From Candidatus Bathyarchaeota archaeon (GTDB lineage Archaea > Thermoproteota > Bathyarchaeia > Bathyarchaeales > Bathycorpusculaceae), in assembly GCA_963811105.1 (NCBI GenBank), contig CAWEPZ010000011.1:1056001-1120000 (forward strand): DNA of 64,000 nucleotides, in the 5' to 3' direction. Below are positions 11,680 through 26,544 of the stretch, piece by piece (the first letter of the stretch is position 1; each line of letters opens with the position of its first letter). The position numbers and the translations under genes were made by a program. Under the pieces are notes generated by a model. The model was not told the origin of the DNA and made no database searches. It saw only the letters and a program-made list of their open reading frames with translations.

Positions 11680-13203
11680 ATGACAAATAAAACTTCAAAA
11701 CGTATCCGTATTTTTGACACAACATTAAGAGATGGGGAACAAACCCCCGGCGTATCTTTAACTGCAGATGACAAGATTGAGATTGCACGTCAACTGAGCA
11801 AACTAGGCGTTGACATTATTGAAGCCGGTTTTCCAAGTTCATCTGAAGGCGAGAAAAAAGTTGTCGCTCAAATAGCGAAAGACGGTTTGGAACCAGAAAT
11901 TTGTGCACTATCGCGTGCAACCAAAGGCGATATTGATGCCGCCGTTGCCTGCGACGTGGACTTAATCCACGTCTTCATTCCCACTTCGCCCGTACAAATG
12001 AAGTATGCTGTAAACTTAACTCCTGAACAAGTACTTGCCTCAACCATAGAATCTATTGAGCATGTGAAGAAGCACGGCATGAAATGCGAGTTTTCTCCTA
12101 TGGATGCCACACGCTCAGAAATGCCTTTCCTAAAACAAGTTTGCCAAGCAGCAGAAAAAGCAGGCATGGACACTTTAAACGTCCCAGATACTGTGGGAAT
12201 AATGACTCCAAAAACAACCATAAAGCTTATCGAGGAACTCAAAACGGTAGTTAAAGTTCCCGTTAGTACGCATTGTCATGATGACTTTGGTTTGGCGGTT
12301 GCAAACTCCTTAGCTGCTGTTGAAGCAGGCGCTGCCCAAGTGCATGTTGCCATTAACGGTTTAGGTGAGCGAGCAGGTAACGCGTCGCTGGAAGAAGTAG
12401 TTATGGCTTTACATGAGATTTACAATTATAAGACAAACGTAAACACACGGTTATTGTTCAGCACATCCAGAATGGTGGCTTCATTAACTGGCATAGCAGT
12501 GCAAGCGAACAAAGCAATTGTTGGCGAGAACGCGTTTGCCCATGAATCAGGTATTCACACTCGCGGAGTAACAGAGAAACCACTAACGTTTGAGCCGATA
12601 AACCCTGAGTTAGTGGGTCGTACAAGAAAATTAGTTGCTGGAAAACTGGCTGGATCCCGCGGCATAAGAGCTGAGCTAGAAGAGATAGATATTCACCCAA
12701 CTGAAGATCAACTTAAAGAAATTGTACAACGCGTCAAAGAACTCGGGGAAAAGGGCAAGATGATAACTGATGCGGATTTGCTGGCATTAACTTCTGCGGT
12801 TATGGGCGAAGTAATAGGCGAAGAAAAAATCGTTGACTTATGCGACTTGGCAGTTGTAACAGGCATCAAAGTTATCCCAACAGCATCAGTTAGGCTAACT
12901 TTGGACGGCAAAGAGCACATTGCCGCAGAAACGGGAGTTGGCCCAGTAGACGCAGTCTTAAAAGCCATCCAAAAACTAACCAATAACCTAGAAAATATTA
13001 GCCTCAGCGAGTACCGGCTTGAGGCCATCACTGGCGGCTCAAATGCAGTTGCAGAAGTCGTCATAAAAGTTCAAGATGAAAAAGGCAATATCGTTTCAGC
13101 TCGGGCAGCTAGAGAAGACATCGTTATGGCTAGCGTTGAAGCAATGATAAACGGTATAAACAAACTCTTGATAAAGAATCGTAAGCAGGGAAACAAAAAG
13201 TGA
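11680..13203 (+). CDS. leuA: 2-isopropylmalate synthase / citramalate synthase family
   Basis: FDTTLRDGEQTPG, HCHDDFG, GERAGN, HESGIH, C-terminal GVGPVDA regulatory domain; leuA versus cimA not resolvable by eye. Confidence 0.85.
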   Translation: MTNKTSKRIRIFDTTLRDGEQTPGVSLTADDKIEIARQLSKLGVDIIEAGFPSSSEGEKKVVAQIAKDGLEPEICALSRATKGDIDAAVACDVDLIHVFIPTSPVQMKYAVNLTPEQVLASTIESIEHVKKHGMKCEFSPMDATRSEMPFLKQVCQAAEKAGMDTLNVPDTVGIMTPKTTIKLIEELKTVVKVPVSTHCHDDFGLAVANSLAAVEAGAAQVHVAINGLGERAGNASLEEVVMALHEIYNYKTNVNTRLLFSTSRMVASLTGIAVQANKAIVGENAFAHESGIHTRGVTEKPLTFEPINPELVGRTRKLVAGKLAGSRGIRAELEEIDIHPTEDQLKEIVQRVKELGEKGKMITDADLLALTSAVMGEVIGEEKIVDLCDLAVVTGIKVIPTASVRLTLDGKEHIAAETGVGPVDAVLKAIQKLTNNLENISLSEYRLEAITGGSNAVAEVVIKVQDEKGNIVSARAAREDIVMASVEAMINGINKLLIKNRKQGNKK

Positions 13204-14012
13204 AAGTTGCCTTCCAAGGCGAACCAGGAGCATATAGCGAAAGTGCAGTCTTCCAAGTCTTCGGAGAAAATACACAGGTTAAACCATGCAAAGACTTCAA
13301 AGACGTTTTTGAAAACGTCTGCTCAGCGGAAACAAATTTTGGCGTTGTCCCAGTCGAGAACAGCTTAGAAGGCAGCATAAATCAAAACTACGACCTCTTT
13401 CTAAGATATGATTTGAAGGTTTTCGGAGAAGTCATTGTAAAAATCGAGCACTGCCTTATCACAAATCCCGGCACTGCTTTGTCCGACATCAAATTTGTTT
13501 ATTCTCATCCTCAAGCGCTGGCACAGTGCCGAAGCTTCTTGGAGGATTTCGGGCGCGAACTCATACCATCATATGACACAGCCGGAAGCGTCAAGTTGAT
13601 TAAAGAAAAAGGCTTAAAAAACGCTGCGGCGATTGCAAGTGAAAGAGCAGCCAACATATACAGCATGCATATCGTCGCCAAAGACATCGCAGACAACCCT
13701 GAGAACTACACGCGGTTCTTCATCCTTTCAACCGAGGATTCACCCGCATCCGGCAATGATAAAACCTCAATAATTTTCTCCGCAAAACATGAGCCAGGCT
13801 CACTTTATCATGCTATTGGGGAATTCGCTAAAAGAAACATCAACCTTACCAAAATCGAGTCGAGACCCACAAAGAAAACTGCATGGGAATACAATTTCTA
13901 CCTTGACTTTGAAGGACACCGAACCGAACCCATACGTGCAGAAGCCTTGAAAGCTTTGGAGAAATATTCAATTTTTATCAAAATCTTAGGTTCATACCCT
14001 AAAGGCGTTTAA
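13200..14012 (+). CDS. pheA: Prephenate dehydratase
   Basis: AFQGEPGAYSE, PVENSLEG, SHPQALAQC, NYTRF, LTKIESRP. Confidence 0.96.
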   Translation: MKVAFQGEPGAYSESAVFQVFGENTQVKPCKDFKDVFENVCSAETNFGVVPVENSLEGSINQNYDLFLRYDLKVFGEVIVKIEHCLITNPGTALSDIKFVYSHPQALAQCRSFLEDFGRELIPSYDTAGSVKLIKEKGLKNAAAIASERAANIYSMHIVAKDIADNPENYTRFFILSTEDSPASGNDKTSIIFSAKHEPGSLYHAIGEFAKRNINLTKIESRPTKKTAWEYNFYLDFEGHRTEPIRAEALKALEKYSIFIKILGSYPKGV

Positions 14013-14454: not shown

Positions 14455-15327
14455 TTACTCTGCAGATTCAAGCATCTTATACATGACATCATAGGACTTC
14501 GCGAAGTCTGTATCAGTCTCTTTTAGCTTTGCCTTCAACTGTTCCATCCGCTCAACGATTGCTTTTGCGTCTTTCTTTCTAATCAGACCCAACCATTCTT
14601 GCGCTTTTGCCATAAACTGGTCTTCGATTTTGCTCAGATCAGGCAAATCTGTTTGCAAACTTGCGTAGAGGTCCGGCGTTTCCAAAGCTGTTGCTTCCGC
14701 CAGAGTGAATAGCATTCGGTAGGTTATGCCTGCCACCTTCTTGGTTTCGGGCAAATTCTTCTGTTCCAAAAGTGTCTCACACGCAACTAAACCAAGAAAA
14801 TGTGGCAAACCGAGAACAACCGACATTAATTCATCATGTTTTTTCGGCGACATAACAAATACGTGAGCTTCCTCTTTCTCCAGCACTTTCTTAAATTCTT
14901 GAGCAAACTTTTCTTCTGCAGCATTTGTTGGGGTTAGGATGTAAGCCTTATGCTTAACGCCGTTGCTTCCTGGCCCAAAAACGGGGTGCGTACCCAGCGC
15001 CAAAGCTTCTTTAATGTTTTCATGCATGAGTTTGACAGGGGTTTCTTTAATTGAGCAGATATCCATTACGATTTGTCCTTTGTGAAGTACTGGAGCAATG
15101 GTTTTGACTACTTCTTCAAAGGCTGTGATAGATACACAGATTAGTACTTGGTCAACGCCAATTACTGCTTCTCTGAAATCAGTGGTTGTATTGATCTGCA
15201 ATTGCTTTTTGAGGTTAGCTATTTTTTCTTTTTTTCTATCAGCCAAAGTAACGGAGTAACCTTTTGAATGATAAAATTTAGCGAACCAAACACCCATTTT
15301 ACCTGCGCCAATTACGGCGATTTTCAT
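14455..15327 (-). CDS. tyrA: Prephenate dehydrogenase
   Basis: IGAGKMG, DICSIKE, HPVFGP, HDELMSVVLGLPH. Confidence 0.93.
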   Translation of the reverse strand: MKIAVIGAGKMGVWFAKFYHSKGYSVTLADRKKEKIANLKKQLQINTTTDFREAVIGVDQVLICVSITAFEEVVKTIAPVLHKGQIVMDICSIKETPVKLMHENIKEALALGTHPVFGPGSNGVKHKAYILTPTNAAEEKFAQEFKKVLEKEEAHVFVMSPKKHDELMSVVLGLPHFLGLVACETLLEQKNLPETKKVAGITYRMLFTLAEATALETPDLYASLQTDLPDLSKIEDQFMAKAQEWLGLIRKKDAKAIVERMEQLKAKLKETDTDFAKSYDVMYKMLESAE

Positions 15328-16403
15328 TTAAGCCCCTCGCTTATTATCTCAAGAGCAGTTTTGATTTCGTTTCTTGGCGCAGTTAACGAAATGCGGAAAT
15401 GTTCTTTGTAATCTCCAAATGCAGTGCCTGGAGCTACTGCTACACCTTTGTCAAGTAAGTCTAAGGTGAATTTTTCCGAGTTTAAACCTGGGCGCTTTGG
15501 AAAAACGTAGAATGGTGCTTCAGGCTTTGTGAAGAAGAAACCTGCTTTTGCCAAAGTTTTGCTTGCCATTTTTGCTCGTTCCTCGTATTCTTCTTTTATG
15601 TTTGTGGCAAGCTGTTTTTGCAGTTCTAGTGCTTTTAATGCTGCTTCTTGAATAAAAACGGGGACGTTGTTGATGGTGATTTGGTTGAGTTTAGTAATGT
15701 TGTCAACAAATCGTTTATTTGCTATTATGTAGCCTATTCTCCATCCAGTCATGCTAAATGTTTTGGAGAACCCTGTTGTGAGAATATGTGTTTGGTCACG
15801 GTCGTATTCCAAGATGCTTTTGGTTTTAACGAAGCTAATTGTTCCGTATACTTCATCTGAGAGGATGGTAACGCTTTTTTTGTTGGCTATTTCTACGATG
15901 CCTTCAAGAGTTTCAGCATCCATAACTTTGCTTGTAGGATTGTTTGGGTTGTTAAGTATTATCATTCGGGTGTCTTTGTCAATCATGCCTTCAAGCTTGT
16001 TCAAGTCGATTTTCCAGCCGTCTTCCATCTCTGTCCGCAGCAGTTTAGTCTTTGCTCCGAGGCTTTTAGCGATTAAATCGTAAGCTGTCCAGTAAGGTGT
16101 AGGGATGATAACGTTTCCTCCACCCTTCATTATAAGATACATGGTTGCGAAAACGCCCCATTTTGAACCAGGCGTAATTACAACGTTTTCAGTGTTAACC
16201 CCATGAAGTTCAGCAAGTTTTTGCCGAAGTTCGCTCTCGCCATAAGAAGAGGAATACTTTGTTTTTCCGGCCTTCATTGAGGCGTAAGCTGCTTCAATTA
16301 TCTCGTTAGGTGTAGCTAAGTCAGGGTCACCTAGGTTCAAGCGTATTATCTTCTTTCCTTCGCTTTCTAGCCTTATGGCTTTCTCATTTATTTCGTAGAG
16401 CAT
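15324..16403 (-). CDS. Class I PLP aminotransferase (aromatic/aspartate)
   Basis: NNPNNPT, SDEVY, GFSKTFSMTGWRIGY. Confidence 0.93.
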   Translation of the reverse strand: MLYEINEKAIRLESEGKKIIRLNLGDPDLATPNEIIEAAYASMKAGKTKYSSSYGESELRQKLAELHGVNTENVVITPGSKWGVFATMYLIMKGGGNVIIPTPYWTAYDLIAKSLGAKTKLLRTEMEDGWKIDLNKLEGMIDKDTRMIILNNPNNPTSKVMDAETLEGIVEIANKKSVTILSDEVYGTISFVKTKSILEYDRDQTHILTTGFSKTFSMTGWRIGYIIANKRFVDNITKLNQITINNVPVFIQEAALKALELQKQLATNIKEEYEERAKMASKTLAKAGFFFTKPEAPFYVFPKRPGLNSEKFTLDLLDKGVAVAPGTAFGDYKEHFRISLTAPRNEIKTALEIISEGLK

Positions 16404-16431
16404 TACTGTTAACTCCCGTTAAGAGTTCTTT

Positions 16432-16692
16432 TTACTGTTGAACAGCACTGCACATATTAACTATTTCGCGGTAAACCGCTTCAATTTGCAGGGGATCAAG
16501 ATTAAATTCAACAGCTTTTTGCTTGACATGCTTATAGAGCTGATTTTCTCTGGAAGTATCTCTTACCTGCATTCCTTGTTTTTTCTTAACTTTTCCAATA
16601 GCCCTGCAGATTTTTGCTCGCTCGTTTAGAGCATTGAGGATTTGCTCGTCAATTTCATCTACTTGTTTTCGAAGTTGTTGGATTTCATTCAT
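16432..16692 (-). CDS. Chorismate mutase (AroQ type)
   Basis: LRKQVDEIDEQIL..R..IGKVK..VRDTSRE. Confidence 0.92.
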   Translation of the reverse strand: MNEIQQLRKQVDEIDEQILNALNERAKICRAIGKVKKKQGMQVRDTSRENQLYKHVKQKAVEFNLDPLQIEAVYREIVNMCSAVQQ

Positions 16693-17801
16693 TATTTTTG
16701 TCTCTCCAAAACTTTCGGTATTAAGCCAGCCCGAATCATTTGGTCAGCTAAGATTATGGCAACCGCGGATTCTATAGCTGGCACAGCTTTTGGAACCACA
16801 CAGGGGTCATGTCTACCCTTGACGGTGAGGCGCGCATCTTTCATTGCAGTTAGGTTAACGGTCTTCTGTTCTTTGCCGATGGAAGGTGTCGGTTTAATTG
16901 CCACTCTCATCAAGATAGGCATGCCATTGGATAACCCACCTAAAATTCCACCCATATTATGTGTGGACGTTGCAACTACCCCGCCCTCCATAACGTAGGG
17001 GTCGTTGGTTTCTGAGCCTTTGAGCTCTGAAATTCTGAAGCCCAAACCGAACTCAACCCCTTTGACCGCGGGAACATTAAACAATGCCTTCGCTAAATCC
17101 GCATCAAGAGAATCAAACAGTGGTTCACCAACACCTACTGGAACATTCAGCACTATACATTCTACTATTCCGCCAAGACTCTCGCCTTCTTTGCGGGCAT
17201 TAACTATAGCCTCTTCCATTCTTTCTGCACAAGCCAAGTCTGGACACCTCGTAGACGCTACATATCTGTTCCTGCGAATTTCTTCTGCACTGAACTTTTT
17301 GTCACTTTTAACTTTGCCAATTGATGTGCTGTAAGCTAACACATCAACATCGAATCTGCCCAGTAGTTTTTTGGCTACTGCTCCAGCCATGATAAGTGCA
17401 ACGGTGACTCTGCCTGAAAAGCGTCCGCCACCACGATAATCTCGAAAGCCCCCATACTTCACATGAGCAGGATAGTCAGAGTGCCCAGGCCTTGGCAGAT
17501 CCTTGATGGCTTCGTAATCATTTGAGTCAACTTCCTTATTTTCAACCATCAACGCTATTGGAGCACCAGTTGTAAACCCATTGAAAACCCCCGATAATAT
17601 CTTTATAACGTCTTTTTCGATTCTTCCAGAAACAATTTTTGGCTCTGCTGGAATGCGCCTGTCCAAGTCCATTTGAATATCTGCTTCTGTAAGAGGCAAG
17701 CCTGCTGGGCAACCGTCCACCACTACGCCAACGACTTTGCCGTGGCTTTCACCGAAACTGGTTACTGTGAACTCTTTACCTATCGAATTTCCCGCCAACA
17801 A
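16692..17801 (-). CDS. aroC: Chorismate synthase
   Basis: SFGESHG, PRPGHSD, RGGGRFSGR, KPTPSI, GRHDPC. Confidence 0.97.
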   Translation of the reverse strand: MLAGNSIGKEFTVTSFGESHGKVVGVVVDGCPAGLPLTEADIQMDLDRRIPAEPKIVSGRIEKDVIKILSGVFNGFTTGAPIALMVENKEVDSNDYEAIKDLPRPGHSDYPAHVKYGGFRDYRGGGRFSGRVTVALIMAGAVAKKLLGRFDVDVLAYSTSIGKVKSDKKFSAEEIRRNRYVASTRCPDLACAERMEEAIVNARKEGESLGGIVECIVLNVPVGVGEPLFDSLDADLAKALFNVPAVKGVEFGLGFRISELKGSETNDPYVMEGGVVATSTHNMGGILGGLSNGMPILMRVAIKPTPSIGKEQKTVNLTAMKDARLTVKGRHDPCVVPKAVPAIESAVAIILADQMIRAGLIPKVLERQK

Positions 17802-19080
17802 TTTCAGCTCCTAATTGTTTTAGATGAGTAAAGAACTGCGGATAAGACTTTCGAACGCACTGCGCATTGTGAATTGTTGTTTGGCTTTCTGCCCGTAATG
17901 CTGCAACTGTGCAAGCCATCGCAATACGGTGGTCATTATGAGGGTCAATAACAGCACCATGAAGTGGAGATAGACCTTCGACAGTAAGACTACTAGAATC
18001 CACAGTTAATTGAGCGCCCATCTTTCCAAGTTCAGCATGAAGCGCTGCTAACCTATCTGACTCTTTGAGTCTGAGCCTTTGCGCTCCAGTAATGTGAGAG
18101 GTGCCTTTGGCATAACAAGCAAGCGTAGTGCAAATTGGGACAAGATCGGGAATATTCTTAGCATCAATATTAACGGCCTCTAGTGGGCTGCCAGATCCAG
18201 CTATTTCAACACTGTCCGAACATACTTTTCCATCAACGCCCATTTGCTTGAGGATTCCCACAATTGCTCTGTCGCCTTGAACGCTATTGTAAACAAGATT
18301 GCTTACTCTAACATTCGAGTTGGTTATGGCCGCTGCAGCTAGAAGAAAAGCAGCTGAAGAGAAATCACCAGGCACTTTGTCATCAATGGGCATGTATGTT
18401 TGGTTGGCTGGGATAAATATTCGTTCGTAGTTTCCATGAATTTCTATGCTTATCCCGTGGTTGAAAAGGACATTTTGCGTCATTCTAACGTAATCTACCG
18501 ACTCAAGCGGCGATGTCACAAGGATTTCGGTGTCCACTTTTGCCATTGGGCAAGCAAACATTAACCCTGAAATAAACTGAGAACTGACGTTGCCGGGAAT
18601 AGAGGTTTCACCTCCAAGAATCCCACCGCCCTGAACGAAGACGGCGTCTTTGTTTCCTATTTTTTTAACGTAAGCTCTAGCACCCAGGTCATCGAGGCTT
18701 TTAAGCAGCGGTTCGATGGGACGGCGTTCAAGAGAACCACCAAAAATCAACAGTGAAGGATCCGGTGTAAGGGCGGCTATGGGTATCATTAAGCGAAACG
18801 TAGTTCCAGATTCGCCGCAGTCAACAGGCTCTTTTGCGTTTTCAAGCGGATTTGCACCAGTAACTGTCCAGCAGCCTTCCGACGAATGCACTTTTGCACC
18901 CAAAGCCGTAACTGCGCGCAACGTTGCTTTTGTATCGTCGGAAAGCAGGGGATTAGAAACCTTTGCAGCCCCATTTGAAAGAGCAGCGGCTATGAGCATT
19001 CGCTGCGTATAAGACTTGGAAGCTGGCGCACAAACCTCGCCACTTAGTTTTTCAGTTTTCTTAACAATAACATCTACCAT
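17776..19080 (-). CDS. aroA: EPSP synthase
   Basis: PASKSYTQR, CGESGTT, SSQFISG, RLKESDR, DHRIAM, KSYP. Confidence 0.97.
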   Translation of the reverse strand: MVDVIVKKTEKLSGEVCAPASKSYTQRMLIAAALSNGAAKVSNPLLSDDTKATLRAVTALGAKVHSSEGCWTVTGANPLENAKEPVDCGESGTTFRLMIPIAALTPDPSLLIFGGSLERRPIEPLLKSLDDLGARAYVKKIGNKDAVFVQGGGILGGETSIPGNVSSQFISGLMFACPMAKVDTEILVTSPLESVDYVRMTQNVLFNHGISIEIHGNYERIFIPANQTYMPIDDKVPGDFSSAAFLLAAAAITNSNVRVSNLVYNSVQGDRAIVGILKQMGVDGKVCSDSVEIAGSGSPLEAVNIDAKNIPDLVPICTTLACYAKGTSHITGAQRLRLKESDRLAALHAELGKMGAQLTVDSSSLTVEGLSPLHGAVIDPHNDHRIAMACTVAALRAESQTTIHNAQCVRKSYPQFFTHLKQLGAEIVGGKFDR

Positions 19081-19082
19081 TA

Positions 19083-19955
19083 CTACAGCACCCTAGCTTT
19101 CTCACGGTTCAAATTTGCCATTAAGATTTCACCGCCAAACTTTTGCAAAGCCGCCCTCACTGAATCAACCTTATCTTCTGGCACAACTGCTGTTACTGCT
19201 GGTCCTTTGCCGCAGAGCCCAGCTGCCACCGCGCCCGAAGCCAATGCATCAATTGCAATTGAACTGTCATATCCTTGGGCGGAAGAATAAATTAACCCGT
19301 TAATTGTCAATGCCTCCCATATCTTGCCCTCCAAAGCCTTCTCATACGCCACTTCGACAAGCGGCTTAACCGTTTGCAGCCTGCCCACGTTAGAGTCTGC
19401 CGTATACGCCTTCTTGGAGGGCACATGAAAAAGAACCGCTAAATTTCCAGTTACCAGCAACTGCTTGACAATTTCTCGCTTCTGATTGTCAGTGATGACT
19501 ACACCGCCAAAATATGAAGCACAAGCATCATCAAAAGCACCCGTCACTGTAACCTTCGCATCAAAAGCAGCATCGACACTCAACTTAACAAGTTCTAAAT
19601 CATCAAGAGTCTTCCCTAATGCTGCAGTGGCTGCTAACGCTACTGCATTTGCGGCCGCACTGCTACTTTTAAGCCCTCTAGCAATAGGAATGTTAGAGCA
19701 AGTTCTTATTTTTGCCCCAAAACGGTTTTCCAAACCAAACCGCCGAAGAACCCTCGCTACGGTTTTTTCTATTAAGAGGGTGCTTTCGTTTGGGTCATCG
19801 GTTATTTCTGATTTGAAAACACAGGGTTCATCTGTTATCTCGACCTCAGCTTTAGTCCACAAGTCTACCCCAAAAGCCGCGCCCTTGCCAAGTGCAATTG
19901 CGTTAACGATTGTTGCGGCGCCATGAGCTATAGCTGTAGCTTTCCCAATCAACAT
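19083..19955 (-). CDS. aroK: Archaeal GHMP shikimate kinase
   Basis: GAATIVNAI, PIARGLKSSSAA, TGAFDDA. Confidence 0.95.
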   Translation of the reverse strand: MLIGKATAIAHGAATIVNAIALGKGAAFGVDLWTKAEVEITDEPCVFKSEITDDPNESTLLIEKTVARVLRRFGLENRFGAKIRTCSNIPIARGLKSSSAAANAVALAATAALGKTLDDLELVKLSVDAAFDAKVTVTGAFDDACASYFGGVVITDNQKREIVKQLLVTGNLAVLFHVPSKKAYTADSNVGRLQTVKPLVEVAYEKALEGKIWEALTINGLIYSSAQGYDSSIAIDALASGAVAAGLCGKGPAVTAVVPEDKVDSVRAALQKFGGEILMANLNREKARVL

Positions 19956-20812
19956 CTACACCTTTGCAAGTGGTTAAGCGCTGCCTTCCTCATAACTTCA
20001 ACTGGTGCCTTGCAGCTTGTCCAGATCTCAAAAGAAGCGGCCCCTTGGTAAATGAGCATTTCAACCCCGCTTACGACTTTGGCTCTGGCAGCTTTAGCAT
20101 CCTTCGCCAGTGTGGTTTCGATTGGATTGTACACTATATCCATTACTGCCAAGTCATGTTTGAGCCACTCTGGCTGTACTGAGGTTTGGTTGGCGTTTGG
20201 TTTCATTCCAACTGATGTGGCGTTAATAAGCACATCAGCGCCAACAAGGTAAGCTTTGATTGTGTTAGGCGAAAGTGTGCCTGCTGTGATTTTCTTTTTG
20301 AACGTTTGCTTCAGGAGATTCGATAGTTCCTCAGCTGGCTGTGGTGTTCGATTCAAAATCGCCAATTCACCCGCCTGCGATGCAAGAGTGTACGCTATAG
20401 CTCGTGCGGCTCCGCCTGCTCCAAGCAATAGGACCTTTTTCCCTTTCGGATCAATACGGTTCGCTTTGAGCGCATTTAGAGCGCCGATTCCGTCGGTGTT
20501 AAAGCCTAGAAGTTTGCCATTTTTGTTTTGAATAGTGTTAACTGCATTAAGGAATTTTGCCGTTGGGTCTATTTCATCTAAGTACTTGATAACTGCTTCT
20601 TTGTGTGGCATAGTAACATTTAACCCATGAATATTCATGACACGAATTCCATCCAGGGCGCCTGCAATACCGTCAGGCTTAACCTTGAACGCTAAAAAAA
20701 CGCAATCCAGTTTCAAAGCCTCAAACGCTGCATTATAGATAACTGGGCTCAGGGTGTGTTCTATGGGGTCGCCGATTACGCCGAAAACGCGGGTTTTTCC
20801 TGAAATAACCAT
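19949..20812 (-). CDS. aroE: Shikimate dehydrogenase
   Basis: GDPIEHTLSP, NVTMPHK, AVNT, NTDG, GAGGAAR. Confidence 0.96.
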   Translation of the reverse strand: MVISGKTRVFGVIGDPIEHTLSPVIYNAAFEALKLDCVFLAFKVKPDGIAGALDGIRVMNIHGLNVTMPHKEAVIKYLDEIDPTAKFLNAVNTIQNKNGKLLGFNTDGIGALNALKANRIDPKGKKVLLLGAGGAARAIAYTLASQAGELAILNRTPQPAEELSNLLKQTFKKKITAGTLSPNTIKAYLVGADVLINATSVGMKPNANQTSVQPEWLKHDLAVMDIVYNPIETTLAKDAKAARAKVVSGVEMLIYQGAASFEIWTSCKAPVEVMRKAALNHLQRCRC

Positions 20813-21495
20813 TATTTTTGCCCCAAAACGTCATAGGCAGCCTGCATTTGCTCAATTGTAATTTGCCCAGCCGCTGTTTCGCTGCCCTGTCCAAGCGAAG
20901 CAAATGTGAAGTACGCACCAAACAGTGGCGACAGCAACCTAGATACCTTGCCTTGTTCGCCCATACAGAAACACACAAGTTTCACTCTACCGGATTTAGC
21001 TGAAACAAAGTTCAGCGCCCCTAGATTGTCTTCTATTTTCTTTGCGGTTGTTACTATTTTGCAGACACTGGCGCCGCTTAAAATTTCCTGTTCCAAAATT
21101 CTTCCCATTTCAGGAATGCTAAGTGCGCTGTCGTGTTTGTGGAAGGAAACGATTGTTTTAGCGCCCAGCTGCTTGAGTTTATAAATTACTTTTTTATGGT
21201 CAGGGCTTGACAAGTCGATATCAACATATTGAAAGCCGTTTTTGGCGGCAGACAGCAAGGTTTGTTGGCGTTCAGCTTCAGTTCCAGCGAAAAAGCCCTT
21301 TTCACTTTGCAGCTTGTTTGTTGCGATAAGCGGGATTGTTGTGCATTTAGAGAATTCTGAGAGGTTTCCATTGGTTTGAAGACAGTCCAATCTAACTTCG
21401 ATGAAATCAGCTTTGGTGCTCTTTGCCCTCTCAATGAGGTTTAACGCTTCTGTGTTGTTTTCAGGGAGAATCGAGACGCAGATTCTTGGGGTCAC
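20812..21495 (-). CDS. aroD: 3-dehydroquinate dehydratase type I
   Basis: EVRLD, IVSFH, CKIV, FCMG..SR, AAGQ. Confidence 0.92.
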   Translation of the reverse strand: MTPRICVSILPENNTEALNLIERAKSTKADFIEVRLDCLQTNGNLSEFSKCTTIPLIATNKLQSEKGFFAGTEAERQQTLLSAAKNGFQYVDIDLSSPDHKKVIYKLKQLGAKTIVSFHKHDSALSIPEMGRILEQEILSGASVCKIVTTAKKIEDNLGALNFVSAKSGRVKLVCFCMGEQGKVSRLLSPLFGAYFTFASLGQGSETAAGQITIEQMQAAYDVLGQK

Positions 21496-22535
21496 TTTTC
21501 AATCACCGTTTCTTCAGGCACAGAAACGCCGAAGTGCCGCCCTCCTTTCGCAGATAAATGAACCAAAACCTCATCGCCTGGTTTCAGCTCAGTTACAGGT
21601 TTTGAAGCCTTAGGAGTTACTAAACGTACGGTTTCGGCGTTTTGTAGGATGGTTTTGATTTTTGTATCGTCGGCTTGTGCCTCAATGAGCATTAGGGGAC
21701 GGAACTCAATTTTTGAGCGCCCCAGGTTTGTTATTCTGACTTTTCCTTCCCTGTTGATGATTAGGACTTCGTCGCCTGCTCTTAGCTCAGAGAGGTATCG
21801 TGTGTTCTGAAGGGAAGTTAATGTGTAGTGGGAGGCTGGTCCAGCGTTAACTCGAAAAGGTCTAGATTGGACATAGGGGTTTTCGTTTACTTCTGCTTCA
21901 ACAAGAAAGAAACCGGCGGATTGGCAGCCGACTAGCATTCCTTCGCCTGGAACCATCAAATCAACGGTGTCAACGCAAACTCTGGCTCCAGTTCCAATAG
22001 GTTTGATAGATAAGATTTTGGCGGTTGTTAAGGGGATTTTTGGCATTTGCTGCTTAACCAGTTTGATGGTTTTCGTAAACTCATTAGGATTGGATGTTTT
22101 CACCAGAACGCCGTCGGTTCCCAACTCTAAGGCTTCGAGAACTATTTTGGCGTCCTCCGCAGTGGTGACTTCGGCTATTAGTTTGCTTTTGCCGCCATGC
22201 GCCTTGGCTATTAAATTTTCGAGGGGAATTACTCGCCAATCAAGAGTGTTTATAATTATATAGTCAACTTGGAGTTCGGCTGCTTTGGCAGCTTGGTTTT
22301 CGTCTTCTTTACCTTTAATGGTTATTTTGATGGCTATTCTTTTGCCTTCGCTTTTCAGTTGGGCAAGCTTTTTCTCGTTTAAGTCAGCGAGGAAATTTAT
22401 GTTGAGTTTGCCTGAGCGGTTACTTATTTGTGTGCCGTCTATGATTGCGTCTGCATTTTCATGGGCAAGGCTAAGCAAGCTTTCTTTTTCTTGATTTGAA
22501 GCTGCTTGGTCAATTTCTATCCAAAGTTCCTTCAA
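21492..22535 (-). CDS. 3-dehydroquinate synthase II (AroB')
   Basis: DWRVIPLENLIA, RVCVD, RPFRVNAG, LQNAETVRL, GRHFG. Confidence 0.95.
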   Translation of the reverse strand: MKELWIEIDQAASNQEKESLLSLAHENADAIIDGTQISNRSGKLNINFLADLNEKKLAQLKSEGKRIAIKITIKGKEDENQAAKAAELQVDYIIINTLDWRVIPLENLIAKAHGGKSKLIAEVTTAEDAKIVLEALELGTDGVLVKTSNPNEFTKTIKLVKQQMPKIPLTTAKILSIKPIGTGARVCVDTVDLMVPGEGMLVGCQSAGFFLVEAEVNENPYVQSRPFRVNAGPASHYTLTSLQNTRYLSELRAGDEVLIINREGKVRITNLGRSKIEFRPLMLIEAQADDTKIKTILQNAETVRLVTPKASKPVTELKPGDEVLVHLSAKGGRHFGVSVPEETVIEK

Positions 22536-23323
22536 CTTTTTTCACCGAGGATTTTAAGAGCCTGCTCTACGCCGACATTTTTGTGAACTATTGCTAAAAG
22601 CGCCTTAACCATCAGAGCGGGTTTGTCATGTTGAAACACATTTCGCCCAATTGAGACTCCTGCTGCTCCGGCTTTTAGCGCGTCATGGGTGGTTTGGAGA
22701 ACTTCTTGAGATGTTTTGCATTTAGGTCCCCCCGCAATCACTACTGGTACGGGGCAGCTTTCGATTACTGATTTGAAGGTATCAATGTTGCCTGTGAAGT
22801 TTGCTTTAATGATGTCTGCGCCAAGTTCAGCACCAATGCGGGCTGCATGCGCTACCACGTCGGCGGCATGTTCGTTTTGGATTTTTGGCCCGCGAGGATA
22901 CATCATTGCAAGCAACGGCATACCAAATAAGTCGCATTCTTCAGCTACCTTCCCCAAGTTGCTCAGCATTTTGTCCTCATCCTGCGCTCCAACGTTTACG
23001 TGTACGGAGACTGCATCGGCACCTAAGCGTACGGCTTCTTGGACACTACAGATTTGGACTTTGCTGTTTATTTTTGGGCTAAGGTTAGACATGCCTGACA
23101 ACATAACGATTAAACCTGTGCCATTAGCATCAACCTGTTTGGCTATGCCTTTGTGGACAAGTATGGCATCAGCTCCGCCTTCAAGAAGCTGATTGATGGT
23201 TTGCTGCATGTTAACTATGCCTTGGATTGGGCCAATTGTTACGCCGTGATCCATAGGCACTATTACTGTACGGTTGTCTTGCTGCATGATTCTTTTTATT
23301 CGCCTTGCTTTACCTTGATTCAT
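22532..23323 (-). CDS. 2-amino-3,7-dideoxy-D-threo-hept-6-ulosonate synthase (AroA', DhnA-type aldolase)
   Basis: PMDHGVTIGP, MMYPRG, ELGADIIK, AGGPK, GRNVFQ; adjacent to DHQ synthase II. Confidence 0.92.
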   Translation of the reverse strand: MNQGKARRIKRIMQQDNRTVIVPMDHGVTIGPIQGIVNMQQTINQLLEGGADAILVHKGIAKQVDANGTGLIVMLSGMSNLSPKINSKVQICSVQEAVRLGADAVSVHVNVGAQDEDKMLSNLGKVAEECDLFGMPLLAMMYPRGPKIQNEHAADVVAHAARIGAELGADIIKANFTGNIDTFKSVIESCPVPVVIAGGPKCKTSQEVLQTTHDALKAGAAGVSIGRNVFQHDKPALMVKALLAIVHKNVGVEQALKILGEKS

Positions 23324-23338
23324 ATTTTGTCACCTTGG

Positions 23339-24586
23339 TTATTTTGCGCTCCTTAAAGAGTTTCTAATTAACTTTAAAGCTTTTTCACGCTCATTCCAAT
23401 CCAAAAACAGCAAAATACTTGACGTGATAGTCAGTATGCCTGAGATGTTAATGCCACTGACTCGGAGGTCTTCACTAATTTTTCCGATGATACCGTGGGT
23501 TTCTTCCAAGCCGACACCGCTGGTTTTTATGTATACTAAGTCCTTTTTGATCGCCATCGCAATAGTTTCTTTGTTTCTCTTCGTTATGTCGTGAATGTCA
23601 TTGAAAAGGGCATCCAAGTTTTTCTCCTGAGAAACGTAAAGTATCAACGAGTTTGCACTCATTGACATGCCAAGCAGAAGGGAGTGATGTTTGGTTTTTT
23701 CAACCATTTCTTGGATGATTTGCGGGTTAGCGGATATGCCGCAGCCGATTACTGTTATTTCAGCAACCGGGAAAGGATGGGCGATTTCTGCGTCTAGTTC
23801 GGTTGTAAGGGCGCCTGTGATTATTGTGCCTTCACTTGCTAGGTTGCCGTGTGCGTGGTTGATTACTTTTATGTTGATGTTTTTAGGTTTATACTTCAGC
23901 GCTTTGCTGTGGATAAATTTGGCTCCTGAATCAGCCAAACCTACAAGAGTGTTAACATCAATTTCTCTGAGACGCTCCGGATTGGAAACGATTTTAGGAT
24001 CCCCTGACATTACCCCATCAGCATTAGTAACTAAAACAATCTCATCAGCGCCCAAAGCTTCAGCTAAAACAAACGCAGTCGTATCACTTCCGCCTCGTCC
24101 TAGAGTTGTAATTTTGCCATCCTTAGTTTTACCCAAAAAACCCGCAACGACCGGAATAATACCTTTATTCATAATTGGCAATACACATTCACGAATGTTC
24201 TTTTCGCAGTCTTTCAGGATTGGATTTGCATTTTGAAAAGCTGAATCTGTAATTATTGGCCAGGTGCTGTCAATTGGGTCAAAGTAACAAGATTCGGCAC
24301 CGTTGGTTTTCAGTGCAGCTGCAAATATTCGAATACTAGTTCGTTCGCCCATCGAGAGGATATCGTCCAGGTCTTTTTTCTCGAGTTTGCCGTTTGAGGC
24401 GTTTTTTGCTGTTGTCATGAGGACATCAGTTGTTTTTCCCATAGCCGAAACTACAACGGCGATTCGAGTGCCTTTTTTGGCTTCGTTTATCACGGCGGTT
24501 ACCGCTTTTAAGAGCCTTTCGTGGTCTGCTAGACTGGAACCACCGAATTTAACCACAATTTTTTTCATAGAGTTCTCTTTTGCCAT
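23339..24586 (-). CDS. lysC: Aspartate kinase
   Basis: VVKFGGSS, VVSAMGKTTD, TLGRGGSDTTA, ACT domains. Confidence 0.93.
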   Translation of the reverse strand: MAKENSMKKIVVKFGGSSLADHERLLKAVTAVINEAKKGTRIAVVVSAMGKTTDVLMTTAKNASNGKLEKKDLDDILSMGERTSIRIFAAALKTNGAESCYFDPIDSTWPIITDSAFQNANPILKDCEKNIRECVLPIMNKGIIPVVAGFLGKTKDGKITTLGRGGSDTTAFVLAEALGADEIVLVTNADGVMSGDPKIVSNPERLREIDVNTLVGLADSGAKFIHSKALKYKPKNINIKVINHAHGNLASEGTIITGALTTELDAEIAHPFPVAEITVIGCGISANPQIIQEMVEKTKHHSLLLGMSMSANSLILYVSQEKNLDALFNDIHDITKRNKETIAMAIKKDLVYIKTSGVGLEETHGIIGKISEDLRVSGINISGILTITSSILLFLDWNEREKALKLIRNSLRSAK

Positions 24587-24605
24587 CTTTTTACGCCCCT
24601 GCCTT

Positions 24606-24643
24606 GCCCAGAACTCTACTCAAAAAATTTGACAGTTCTGGGC
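24606..24643 (-). promoter_or_regulatory. Stem-loop between the aromatic leader stop codon and the aspartokinase SD
   Basis: Perfect 10-bp inverted repeat gcccagaact (24606-24615)/agttctgggc (24634-24643), inner tcaaa/tttga pairing, U6 inside on the mRNA strand. Confidence 0.75.
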
Positions 24644-24730
24644 TTAAGGAAAATAACGATAATAAAAGCCGAAGTCGAAGCTCTGGAACCATGATACATT
24701 GTTTTCTTTTTTGCTTTGCAAATTAGACAT
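24644..24730 (-). CDS. Aromatic-rich leader peptide MSNLQSKKENNVSWFQSFDFGFYYRYFP (28 aa, not in ORF track)
   Basis: Hand translation; 1 Trp, 5 Phe and 3 Tyr in the last 15 codons, directly upstream of the aro operon. Confidence 0.8.
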   Translation of the reverse strand: MSNLQSKKENNVSWFQSFDFGFYYRYFP

Positions 24731-24768
24731 TGCAGCTTCGAACCTTGCTCAATCAGACATTAACGAGA

Positions 24769-24785
24769 AAATATAAGCGTTTCGG
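24769..24785 (-). promoter_or_regulatory. BRE/TATA promoter of the leader/aro operon
   Basis: Minus strand ccgaaacgcttatattt about 40 nt upstream of the leader ATG. Confidence 0.55.
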
Positions 24786-24877
24786 AAATAGACTAAGATT
24801 TAGCCACTAAATGTCAGCTCTGAGGGTATAGTGTTTATCAATTTGGCTGTGCATAACAACCAACGGAAGGCATCCAG

Positions 24878-25708
24878 TTGAAAGTGCAAATAGATTGGCA
24901 CCAAATCCTCATTGAATGCAAAATTAACGTGAAAGCAAGCATCAAGCCCTTCCTTAAAACCATCAAGGACCCCCAACCTAACCTAGGAGTAGGCGCAGGC
25001 GGAGATGCCATGAAACCAATGGATTTAGCGGCTGAAACAGCAATCCTTGACACATTAAAAAGCCATGATGTTTCTTTTACCTTAATCAGCGAAGAATCAG
25101 GAGTAAAAAAATTCGGCGAAGCGGCAGAGGAATGTATTGTTACCTTGGACCCGATTGATGGCAGCACCAATTTCATGCATGGACTACCCTTCTACTGTTG
25201 CTCTATTGCAGTTTCCCGACATCCTATGCTTGCCGATGCGTACGCAGGCATGGTTGCTGACTTAGTTCATGGCGCAACATACACGGCGATTAAAGGCAAG
25301 GGCGCCTATCGAGATGACGAAAAGATAAAACCCTCCACCACCGCTGATTTGCAAGATGCAGTAATAGGTCTAGACTTGAACACTTACAAAGTTAAAGAAG
25401 TTGTACCCAAACTAACCTCGCTTATAGCTGAAACCAAGCATATCCGCCATTTTGGCGCTAACGCACTTGAACTGTGCTATGTTGCTGATGGGTCAACAGA
25501 TGCGTTTGTGGATATCCGTGGGAAACTTCGCACAACCGATGTTGCAGCTGCTTTCCTGATTCTTAAAGAGGCAGGCGGAATCATGACTACCCCGAATAAT
25601 CACGTTTTAAACGTTGAATTAAACCCAAAACAAACGTTAAGCTTTGTAGCCTCAGGGAACATGCAAATTCACCAAAAAATTTTGACTTTGGTTAAATCCT
25701 TATGTTAA
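24878..25708 (+). CDS. suhB: Inositol monophosphatase / FBPase (archaeal bifunctional family)
   Basis: ISEESG, LDPIDGSTNF, RHFGANALELCYVA, DVAAA. Confidence 0.9.
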   Translation: MKVQIDWHQILIECKINVKASIKPFLKTIKDPQPNLGVGAGGDAMKPMDLAAETAILDTLKSHDVSFTLISEESGVKKFGEAAEECIVTLDPIDGSTNFMHGLPFYCCSIAVSRHPMLADAYAGMVADLVHGATYTAIKGKGAYRDDEKIKPSTTADLQDAVIGLDLNTYKVKEVVPKLTSLIAETKHIRHFGANALELCYVADGSTDAFVDIRGKLRTTDVAAAFLILKEAGGIMTTPNNHVLNVELNPKQTLSFVASGNMQIHQKILTLVKSLC

Positions 25709-26544
25709 GTTTGCTTTGGCCCCACCCAGCAGCTATGGTAAAAATCCTGAAAACCAAAACCCTTCTTATCGCTGACCCACACATCGGATGGGAGATAGCG
25801 CTTCAAGAAAAAGGCATACATGTTCCAAGCCAAACCCCAAAAATCCTAAACAAGCTAACCGCAATAATCACCAAATACAAGCCAGACCGGCTTGTTATCC
25901 TAGGCGATGTAAAATACACCGTTATTTCTAGCGAAATAGGTGAATGGCATGATATTCCCGATTTCTTTGCTAAACTGCAAAGCTGCGTGCAAAATATCGC
26001 TGTTGTACGGGGTAACCATGACGCCAACATCGAACCACTCTTACCCGAAAACGTAGAACTTCTGCCTGCAACAGGAGCGATAATCGGTGACGTAGCCGTT
26101 TTTCATGGACACAAATGGCCCTCGCCAGCCCTGCTATCGTGCAAAACGTTGGTTATGGGACATTTGCATCCGGTTGTGGTTTTCCGAGACCCCGCTGGCT
26201 TTAAAATTACAAGGCAAGCATGGATGTTAGCGAACTGTAATTCTGAGGCATTAGCAAAGATTCTGTTGCAAAAGCACAATGTAAAAATCGAGGGCTCAGT
26301 TGCGGAAACACTAATGAAGCATTACAAAATCAAATTGAAGACAACCCAGATTTTCATCATGCCGAGTTTTAACGATTTTCTCGGCGGCAGACCAATAAAC
26401 GAAACAAGACCTCGAAAAGAAGTCGGCAGCGAAGCCTTGATCGGGCCAGTTTTGCGTTCGGAAGCGGTGGATGTTGATAACTCGGAGCTTTACCTGTTGG
26501 ATGGCACTTATCTTGGTACTTTAAACCAGCTTAGGAACCTCTAG
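25702..26544 (+). CDS. Calcineurin-like metallophosphoesterase
   Basis: ADPHIG, ILGD, RGNHD, FHGH, MGHLHP, MPSFN. Confidence 0.9.
   Translation: MLSLLWPHPAAMVKILKTKTLLIADPHIGWEIALQEKGIHVPSQTPKILNKLTAIITKYKPDRLVILGDVKYTVISSEIGEWHDIPDFFAKLQSCVQNIAVVRGNHDANIEPLLPENVELLPATGAIIGDVAVFHGHKWPSPALLSCKTLVMGHLHPVVVFRDPAGFKITRQAWMLANCNSEALAKILLQKHNVKIEGSVAETLMKHYKIKLKTTQIFIMPSFNDFLGGRPINETRPRKEVGSEALIGPVLRSEAVDVDNSELYLLDGTYLGTLNQLRNL

Follow-up and report, generated by a model that had tools for sequence, protein, structure and literature searches.

A small upstream open reading frame (uORF), whose last codons are largely those for phenylalanine (Phe) and tyrosine (Tyr) and whose stop codon abuts a hairpin, precedes the operon for aromatic amino acid biosynthesis in a Candidatus Bathyarchaeota archaeon and in many of its relatives. 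The locus lies on the minus strand of a 64,000-nucleotide (nt) stretch of contig CAWEPZ010000011.1 (assembly GCA_963811105.1, positions 1,056,001 to 1,120,000), which as a whole is called the window here. Comparisons between genomes strongly support the putative sensor part of this leader, i.e. the Phe/Tyr-rich uORF together with its stop-adjacent hairpin. Tentatively, the entire leader may be regarded as a ribosome-mediated attenuator in Bathyarchaeia that senses charged tRNA-Phe and tRNA-Tyr and has transcription termination as its output, a reading that we consider quite possible although somewhat short of probable. Translation of the uORF, stalling of the ribosome, the direction of the response and the termination output are the parts of this reading that we infer.

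On the minus strand the elements follow each other in the order BRE/TATA-like promoter box (BRE, B recognition element), box A, uORF, hairpin (5' arm C, loop, 3' arm D), Shine-Dalgarno (SD) element and ATG of the aspartokinase (AK) gene (Table 1). A sequence-only reading of the window had described here a uORF with no aromatic residue in its first 13 positions and nine in its last 15 (one tryptophan (Trp), five Phe, three Tyr), a stop codon abutting a perfect 10-bp stem with six U inside, followed by the AGGGGCG SD, a BRE/TATA box farther upstream, and an 11-gene aromatic operon downstream. All of these features were found again when the sequence was re-read; the gene identities were assigned with NCBIfam, and the promoter box proved to lie at a constant distance from the uORF across families. 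The 11 minus-strand genes encode AK, ADH synthase, DHQ synthase II, AroD, AroE, the archaeal shikimate kinase, AroA, AroC, chorismate mutase, an aminotransferase and prephenate dehydrogenase. Together they cover the synthesis of chorismate by the archaeal aspartate-semialdehyde route and the Phe/Tyr branch. The gene ends within the operon overlap or abut, and the uORF lies 57 nt from AK on the same strand.

In the following, G000 denotes the source genome, and f-, g- and L-numbers denote families, genera and loci, respectively. The window's clade is the GCCCAG clade of family f1 (43 loci), of which 40 sequences form alignment A1. The genomes compared are relatives, and all locus counts given below are thus not counts of independent events and overstate independence.

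Chance is excluded by the comparison between genomes and not by the window sequence alone, which is only mildly unusual: 12 of the 6041 upstream ATG-started small open reading frames (sORFs) of G000 reach at least seven aromatic residues in 12, and the 221-nt leader region folds no better than its shuffles (z = -0.61). Orthologues of AK exist in all 36 other same-genus genomes searched, and each of 30 same-genus upstream regions contains an ATG-started uORF of 24-29 codons that is in frame with the aromatic block and ends at the hairpin. Across the order, AK orthologues (E <= 1e-90) were detected in 128 of 251 genomes, and 100 out of 101 loci from seven families have a Phe/Tyr-rich uORF in front of AK. 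A Phe/Tyr-rich uORF that ends 50-80 nt before AK was flagged in 59 of 60 further regions, which represent seven families; the sixtieth (L083) also has one, its frame extending past the stretch examined, which brings the count to 60/60. Another 11 loci of the order contributed ten uORFs and the weaker case of L037, with four aromatic residues among the last 14. Outside the order, 31 loci from elsewhere in the class were compared: 11 carry a strongly aromatic uORF (at least seven of the last 14 residues) followed by a hairpin, five are intermediate and 15 have none. The element is always located directly 5' of, and on the same strand as, the Phe/Tyr-producing operon, and AK itself is 63-99% identical in Candidatus Bathyarchaeota/Bathyarchaeia genomes. 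An alignment across Bathyarchaeia had been suggested as a check on the sequence-only reading, and the aromatic-rich uORF upstream of the AK-aro operon did turn out to be conserved at the level of the genus and of the order and, in part, of the class.

Codon usage along the uORF is strongly polarized. Over 87 leaders, the last 14 residues comprise 27.8% Tyr, 25.5% Phe and 1.7% Trp and the remainder 1.5%, 2.3% and 0.6%, so that Phe and Tyr together make up 53% of the last 14 residues as opposed to 4% elsewhere. The last aromatic codon is found one, two or three codons before the stop in 29, 53 and 5 leaders, respectively, and thereby within three codons of the stop in all 87. Only 26 of the 87 leaders contain Trp at all, which points to a sensor for Phe and Tyr and not for all three products. 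The sequence-only reading had assigned Trp, Phe and Tyr to the leader alike; this view stands for Phe and Tyr but has to be given up for Trp as a general feature.

Substitutions and gaps show the signature of a coding frame. The N-terminal half of the peptide is scrambled between species, and the positions of start, frame and stop are kept. Phe and Tyr interchange, and the number and spacing of the aromatic residues differ between clades. In A1, the 42 gap runs inside the ORF are all three, six or nine nt long, the column at the junction of stop and hairpin excepted, and those in the non-coding part from hairpin to SD are one to seven nt long and aperiodic. Codons 3, 5 and 6 after a Ser-Phe anchor (Tyr, Phe and Tyr) are invariant at their first two positions and vary only at the third, and a short peptide motif, S-F-D/E/G-Y, is kept in f1. 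The codons of the anchor itself, AGC TTC within box B, are fixed at all three positions in 43/43 loci of the window's clade, and the neighbouring codons are not. Fixation at all three codon positions indicates a constraint on the RNA rather than on the protein.

A hairpin of -10 to -31 kcal/mol begins immediately behind the uORF stop (gap of 0 nt) in 67 of 87 loci and no more than 6 nt from it in 86. In the 40 sequences of A1, arms C and D form ten pairs with 96.0% of cells paired and four pairs changed on both sides. The covariation score was reached by none of 500 shuffles, and slid registers pair in only 22-48% of the cells. RNAalifold predicts the stop-adjacent hairpin unaided and in f7 also pairs the AA of the stop codon with UU after the stem. 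Covariation of the stem, which had been named as a further check on the leader, is hence present in the form of compensatory changes. Cells with G.U outnumber those with A.C by 23 to 3 in C:D and by 19 to 5 in the helix of boxes A and B described below; this excess suggests selection on the sense-strand RNA and argues against a DNA palindrome. The lower stem, GCCCAG/CTGGGC, hardly varies within the window's clade. The stem has an entirely different sequence from clade to clade (GCCCAG.., GGAGAA.., GGAGAAACC.., GAAGAAACC.., GCUUCGAGG.. and others) and its position is kept. The SD follows the hairpin by 3-10 nt in all loci and is never inside it. A separate observation concerns f14 (L113, L114), in which a perfect stop-adjacent stem of 12-13 bp is followed by U5 and GGAGG; its arms (GCUUCGAGG.. 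and ..UUUCGAAGC) are similar to boxes B and A of the window's clade, which looks as though the same sequence pair had been put to use at another place.

Box A is complementary to box B, and the resulting A:B helix, which RNAalifold predicts, links the box before the start codon to the Ser-Phe-Asp codons. Its eight pairs are formed in 96.4% of cells, and the changes are mostly G.U wobbles. Elsewhere the region before the start codon pairs with the hairpin. In f7/f6, complementarity to the 5' arm resides in the 20 nt that precede the uORF AUG (mean -11.1 kcal/mol, z = -2.1 against shuffles), with p <= 0.05 in 67% of 18 loci; the corresponding energies are -14.6 kcal/mol in f7_g75 and -12.7 kcal/mol in f5. 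This pre-AUG box is CUGGGC in loci with a GCCCAG arm and CUCUCC in loci with a GGAGAG arm, and swapping boxes or arms between the two types abolishes the pairing. Loci of f11 differ in that their box looks like the 5' arm itself and has its complement in the 3' arm (-10.0 kcal/mol; 45% of 11 loci). The element may thus have the competing-helix logic of an attenuator in several families. Other arm partners suggested by constrained folding for the window's genus, namely D with the codons before the aromatic block and C with the SD of AK, were inconsistent between species and were rejected, and no competing helix was defined for the window itself.

The oligo-U tract of the leader is best viewed against the gene ends of G000. 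After 1773 long ORFs, runs of at least five T start 232 and 293 times per 20-nt bin at positions +1 to +40, as compared with 35-47 times inside genes, which is a 6-7 fold enrichment just after stop codons. The 35 nt upstream of these runs fold like shuffles (-2.9 vs -2.4 kcal/mol). This suggests that G000 terminates transcription at oligo-T runs independently of hairpins, as has been reported for other archaea. The U run of the leader fits this pattern and is a putative terminator of the same kind: in the window's clade, the hairpin loop contains a run of at least four U in 40 of 43 loci and of at least five in 33, and the first run of four or more begins 16 nt after the stop in 23 of the 40 loci (range 12-23). 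In f7, 12 of 17 loops have such a run of at least four. In f11, f14, f10 and the remaining f1 loci (f1_other), U3-6 follows the stem directly and precedes GGAGG or GGGGG; in f11, the tail has at least four U in 8 of 11 loci. The earlier statement that a classic terminator of stem and subsequent U tract is missing consequently applies to the window's clade and not to many other clades.

Folding with ribosome masks, in which the ribosome was assumed to cover positions -15 to +12 relative to its A site (a footprint derived from bacterial data), gave hairpin probabilities of 0.91 for free RNA, 0.90 with the ribosome on the first aromatic codon, 0.95 on the middle one, 0.31 on the last one and 0.02 at the stop. 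In these calculations, the one robust physical effect of the ribosome would be to hold the 5' arm when it stands at the very end of the uORF. That only a ribosome in this place blocks the hairpin would account both for aromatic codons that extend as far as the stop and for a stop that directly adjoins the stem. By comparison, the probability that the SD is unpaired hardly responds to the ribosome, with means of 0.36, 0.36, 0.35, 0.35 and 0.35 for the five states over 85 loci. Individual clades move in both directions (0.38 free vs 0.41 with the ribosome at the stop in the window's clade; 0.43 vs 0.25 in f1_other). Sequestration of the SD was rejected as a general mechanism for these reasons, and control of downstream initiation, which the sequence-only reading had offered as an alternative to termination, draws no support from the accessibility calculations.

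Table 1. Coordinates of the leader elements and of the operon in the window.
Feature	Position	Strand	Remarks
BRE/TATA-like box CCGAAACGCTTATATTTT	24785-24768	minus	recognized by sequence; nearly invariant in 30 same-genus upstream regions
Box A, GGTTCGAAGCT	24744-24734	minus	just 5' of uORF start; kept in all loci of the f1 GCCCAG clade (alignment A1)
Leader uORF, 28 codons + TAA, peptide MSNLQSKKENNVSWFQSFDFGFYYRYFP	24730-24644	minus	ATG at 24730, stop TAA 24646-24644
Aromatic codon block W F.. F. F. F Y Y. Y F P	24691-24647	minus	
Box B, AGCTTCGAC = Ser-Phe-Asp codons	24682-24674	minus	partner of box A
Hairpin 5' arm C, GCCCAGAACT	24643-24634	minus	first base follows uORF stop codon
U6 tract (TTTTTT) in 18-nt hairpin loop	24627-24622	minus	16 nt after uORF stop; oligo-T terminator-like
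Hairpin 3' arm D, AGTTCTGGGC	24615-24606	minus	perfect pairing with C in the window
SD-like element of AK, AGGGGCG	24600-24594	minus	G-rich; GGGTG in most of the genus
Operon, 11 genes	14455-24586	minus	AK = 23339-24586, ATG at 24586; NCBIfam assignments

In the mechanism proposed here, transcription would start about 15 nt before a leader ORF of about 26 codons, with Phe and Tyr as more than half of its last 12-14 codons, and the leader would be followed by a hairpin equipped with an oligo-U tract. The window's clade has this tract in the loop, and most other clades have it immediately behind the stem. Under a plentiful supply of Phe and Tyr, the ribosome would complete the leader and depart, and the RNA would adopt a ground state consisting of the A:B helix and the stop-adjacent hairpin. 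In this ground state the polymerase would end the transcript at the U tract, and only a short leader RNA would be made. When Phe and Tyr are scarce, the ribosome would linger on the terminal Phe/Tyr codons and physically hold the 5' arm; in families whose 5' box is complementary to a hairpin arm, this box could capture the arm instead. The hairpin would be prevented either way, and the polymerase would continue into the 11-gene operon. The idea that the position of the ribosome decides had already been put forward in the sequence-only reading. Its sensor side agrees with the conserved uORF, the codon bias and the geometry of stop and hairpin, but Trp sensing is not general, and an effect on downstream initiation gains no support from the accessibility calculations.

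Several observations weigh against this mechanism. The SD of the uORF itself is weak (-4.3 kcal/mol, compared with -3.5 kcal/mol for shuffles), and a strong SD for the uORF was rejected as the match is barely above that of shuffles. A second reading frame is open for at least 20 codons in 42 of 59 loci, and statistics on open frames alone therefore prove little. Pairing of box A with arm C, the counterpart of the competing helix in f7/f6, is weak in the window's clade (-7.4 kcal/mol, z = -0.9, p <= 0.05 in 16% of 43 loci) and, judged by eye, looks lost in genus g23, where the arm does not have the GAAC segment. Further difficulties concern the output. A run of at least three U after the stem occurs in none of the 43 loci of the window's clade; with the U tract before the 3' arm and none behind the stem, the hairpin of this clade cannot act in the manner of a bacterial terminator. 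The hairpin is also blocked when the ribosome stands at the stop, which is the opposite of the trp/phe design, and the state of plenty thus needs fast release of the ribosome if termination is to occur. Simple coupling, where a ribosome close behind the polymerase suppresses termination, would give the wrong sign. The output step, be it termination or translation, is especially tentative in the window's clade.

A different way to connect ribosome and terminator is direct contact. With the stop codon in the A site, arithmetic on the window sequence places the P site about 27-28 nt behind the end of U6, and this distance roughly matches the spacing in structures of bacterial ribosome-polymerase complexes. 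Contact between ribosome and polymerase at an archaeal terminator that needs no hairpin might then decide, and the flanking inverted repeat and the 5' box would lock the outcome. This idea of a ribosome that stands at the stop about 27-28 nt behind a polymerase on the oligo-U is speculative, and we regard it as unlikely.

The same Phe/Tyr sensor could also have a post-transcriptional output, with the held ribosome melting the hairpin and thereby either increasing initiation at AK, for example through a standby platform by the SD, or stabilizing the mRNA. Such an output has the right sign without kinetic assumptions and would suit a slow-growing archaeon. It is in keeping with the constant position of the SD 3-10 nt past the hairpin and with a hairpin that is opened only by a ribosome on the last codons or the stop, which matches the placement of the aromatic codons and of the stop. 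It is also in keeping with the overlapping gene ends of the operon: because the genes overlap or abut, initiation at the first one would set translation of the whole operon. uORFs that sense an amino acid and act on translation have moreover been reported in mycobacteria (10.1101/834739). However, the SD is never in the hairpin, its calculated accessibility is equal in all ribosome states, and the conserved U tract and the complementarity of the 5' box would be left unexplained, so that we judge this explanation to be somewhat unlikely.

Two further explanations dispense with the sensor. The uORF might be an independent small gene whose peptide is functional itself, e.g. by binding to an enzyme or a membrane, and the hairpin and U tract would then be its terminator or a stabilizing 3' structure. 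The T run 16 nt past the stop indeed resembles ordinary gene ends of G000, and f1 has kept the S-F-D/E/G-Y motif, but the peptide is unconserved outside its aromatic positions, Phe and Tyr interchange, and their number and spacing vary. The AGC TTC codons are under an RNA-type constraint, the element always stands directly 5' of the Phe/Tyr operon on the same strand, and the sequences of the upstream regions contain no promoter-like box between uORF and AK that is shared across clades; an independent gene is improbable in view of these properties. Alternatively, the boxes might be DNA or protein-binding elements, either a palindromic repressor operator (with A/B of the TTCGAA type and a C/D repeat flanking an AT-rich, TATA-like loop) or a protein-bound RNA hairpin, and the ORF would be incidental. 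Box A, GGTTCGAAGC, comes close to a perfect palindrome and is situated at the predicted transcription start site (TSS), a usual place for archaeal repressors. The near-invariance of GCCCAG/CTGGGC in the window's clade would fit an operator too, as would the resemblance of arm C plus loop (CCAGAAC..AAAAATTTTTT) to the upstream BRE/TATA (CCGAAAC..CTTATATTTT). The G.U to A.C ratios of 23:3 and 19:5, on the other hand, are not expected of a DNA palindrome, stems and loops differ wholly between clades (including GC-rich loops without a TATA-like run) while the geometry is kept, and ORF, frame and codon bias are all conserved. These ratios and the turnover of stem sequences between clades speak against a DNA palindrome or operator that would explain everything by itself, and we consider binding elements with an incidental ORF very improbable.

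Among known systems, the attenuators of the E. coli pheL-pheA, trpL and hisL type offer the closest comparison. The leader shares with them a short ORF before a biosynthetic operon that is rich in codons for the end products and otherwise encodes an unconserved peptide, as well as a stable hairpin and a U run between leader and first gene. In some families one hairpin arm may also enter an alternative pairing, as in the bacterial systems, and in the window's clade the A:B helix involves the regulatory codons like the bacterial segment 1:2. In contrast to pheL, trpL and hisL, the host is an archaeon with a promoter of the BRE/TATA type and oligo-T terminators, and the leader would sense two amino acids at once. 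The bacterial leader stop lies about 15 nt upstream of the hairpin, whereas here it abuts the hairpin (no gap in 67/87); the competing segment is 5' of the leader start codon instead of between leader and terminator, and in the window's clade the U run belongs to the loop. In the window, the leader lacks two features that define trpL, pheL and hisL, namely a terminator of stem and subsequent U and a stop that leaves the terminator free. It would also differ from translational attenuators (ermC/cat type; poly-Cys sORF) because the SD does not appear to be sequestered in the calculated structures.

The geometry of a stop codon that abuts the hairpin resembles pyrBI and tnaC more than trpL, as the placement of the ribosome relative to a terminator element is decisive there. 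In pyrBI, which senses UTP, a closely following ribosome prevents the terminator hairpin, and in tnaC, which senses free tryptophan and acts through Rho, a ribosome held at the stop covers the adjacent site of the termination factor. To our knowledge, archaea lack Rho. Unlike the leader, pyrBI and tnaC do not sense tRNA charging through runs of cognate codons. In mycobacteria, leaderless poly-Cys sORFs act as attenuators (the 'ribulon'), and stalled ribosomes block a structure that would sequester the downstream ribosome-binding site (10.1101/834739). The similarity lies in an sORF rich in one kind of amino acid that comes first, in control of the operon by pausing at cognate codons and in the dispensability of a classical terminator, and the difference in the archaeal SD, which is outside the hairpin and unchanged in calculated accessibility. 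No archaeal leader-peptide attenuation was found in the accessible text of the literature searched (including PMC2965389, PMC4833913, PMC7858274, PMC7261190 and 10.1101/834739; subscription-only papers and supplements were outside its scope). In this literature, leader-peptide attenuation is described only for bacteria.

The promoter region of the leader has a regular spacing. The TATA hexamer starts 46 nt before the uORF ATG in the window, and TATA-like hexamers start 41-48 nt 5' of the uORF AUG in most f1, f7, f11 and f5 loci. Based on the usual archaeal distance between TATA and TSS, the TSS is predicted about 12-18 nt 5' of the uORF AUG, and box A is probably at the very 5' end of the transcript. 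A three-codon mini-ORF, ATGTCTGATTGA, is located between the TATA box and box A (window positions 24749-24760, minus strand). The core of this region, TGA(C/T)TGATTG, is kept in most of the genus and by its spacing lies at or 5' of the predicted TSS, where it may be an initiator region or a protein-binding site. Divergent from the leader promoter, the plus strand carries a gene of the inositol-monophosphatase/FBPase family and a metallophosphoesterase gene (24878-26544), and the 150-nt divergent intergenic region would hold both promoters. At the other end of the operon, the prephenate dehydratase gene pheA (13200-14012, plus strand) overlaps the end of a 2-isopropylmalate synthase gene (11680-13203) by 4 nt and converges, on the strand opposite to the aro operon, on its tyrA end (14455). 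Owing to this overlap and orientation, Phe-branch and leucine genes seem to be co-transcribed outside the control of the leader. The 16S rRNA of G000 is archaeal with the 3' end GGAUCACCUCCU, and the best anti-SD match falls between hairpin and AK start in the 85 loci scored. A scan with consensus sequences of the sigma-70 type for promoters and terminators yielded nothing relevant and no terminator at the leader, and an Rfam covariance-model scan of window positions 23500-25500 (E <= 10) returned only matches at chance level and no amino acid leader family.

A genome-wide scan of the 6041 upstream sORFs of G000 for enrichment of a single amino acid revealed no convincing second leader, and the trp operon (C2:283775-289642) has neither a Trp-rich leader nor a stop-adjacent hairpin; a general attenuation system in this genome was rejected on these grounds. 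In the same region (C2:283289-289642), trpE (283775) begins about 35 nt after a cutA-like gene. The leader is also not a repeated element, as GCCCAG..CTGGGC occurs only once elsewhere in the genome, inside a uvrA-like coding region, and a co-occurrence of two motifs at C11:136921 lies within a coding gene. In other genomes, two families of loci have no Phe/Tyr leader before AK, f26 (L104, L105, L107) and f35 (L111, L112). They possess other conserved small ORFs in this place, MG(D/G)xLFGDGVY... in f26 and MGGHLYWH(K/R)PAPETLIQV in f35, which may be a different kind of leader. AK sequences 84-89% identical to that of the window were also encountered in two public records with bacterial titles (L154 and L166; Acidoferrum and a metagenome-assembled genome of Limnocylindrales), and these contigs are probably mis-binned archaeal DNA.

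Leader-peptide attenuation is a textbook consequence of coupled transcription and translation. If the attenuator reading is true, archaea use ribosome-mediated attenuation too, and a Phe/Tyr leader with an architecture unlike the bacterial one has been kept across much of Bathyarchaeia; if the decision were instead made by contact between ribosome and polymerase, termination would be controlled in a new way. With its conservation over about 100 species, the leader offers a concrete test, defined by sequence, of whether archaeal ribosomes signal to archaeal RNA polymerase for regulation, and it also bears on how oligo-U terminators become conditional. Its natural variants, with the U tract in the loop or after the stem and with a 5' box that pairs with either arm, could be compared experimentally. 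The leader thereby also bears on the control of amino acid synthesis in uncultured, globally abundant archaea of sediments and soils.

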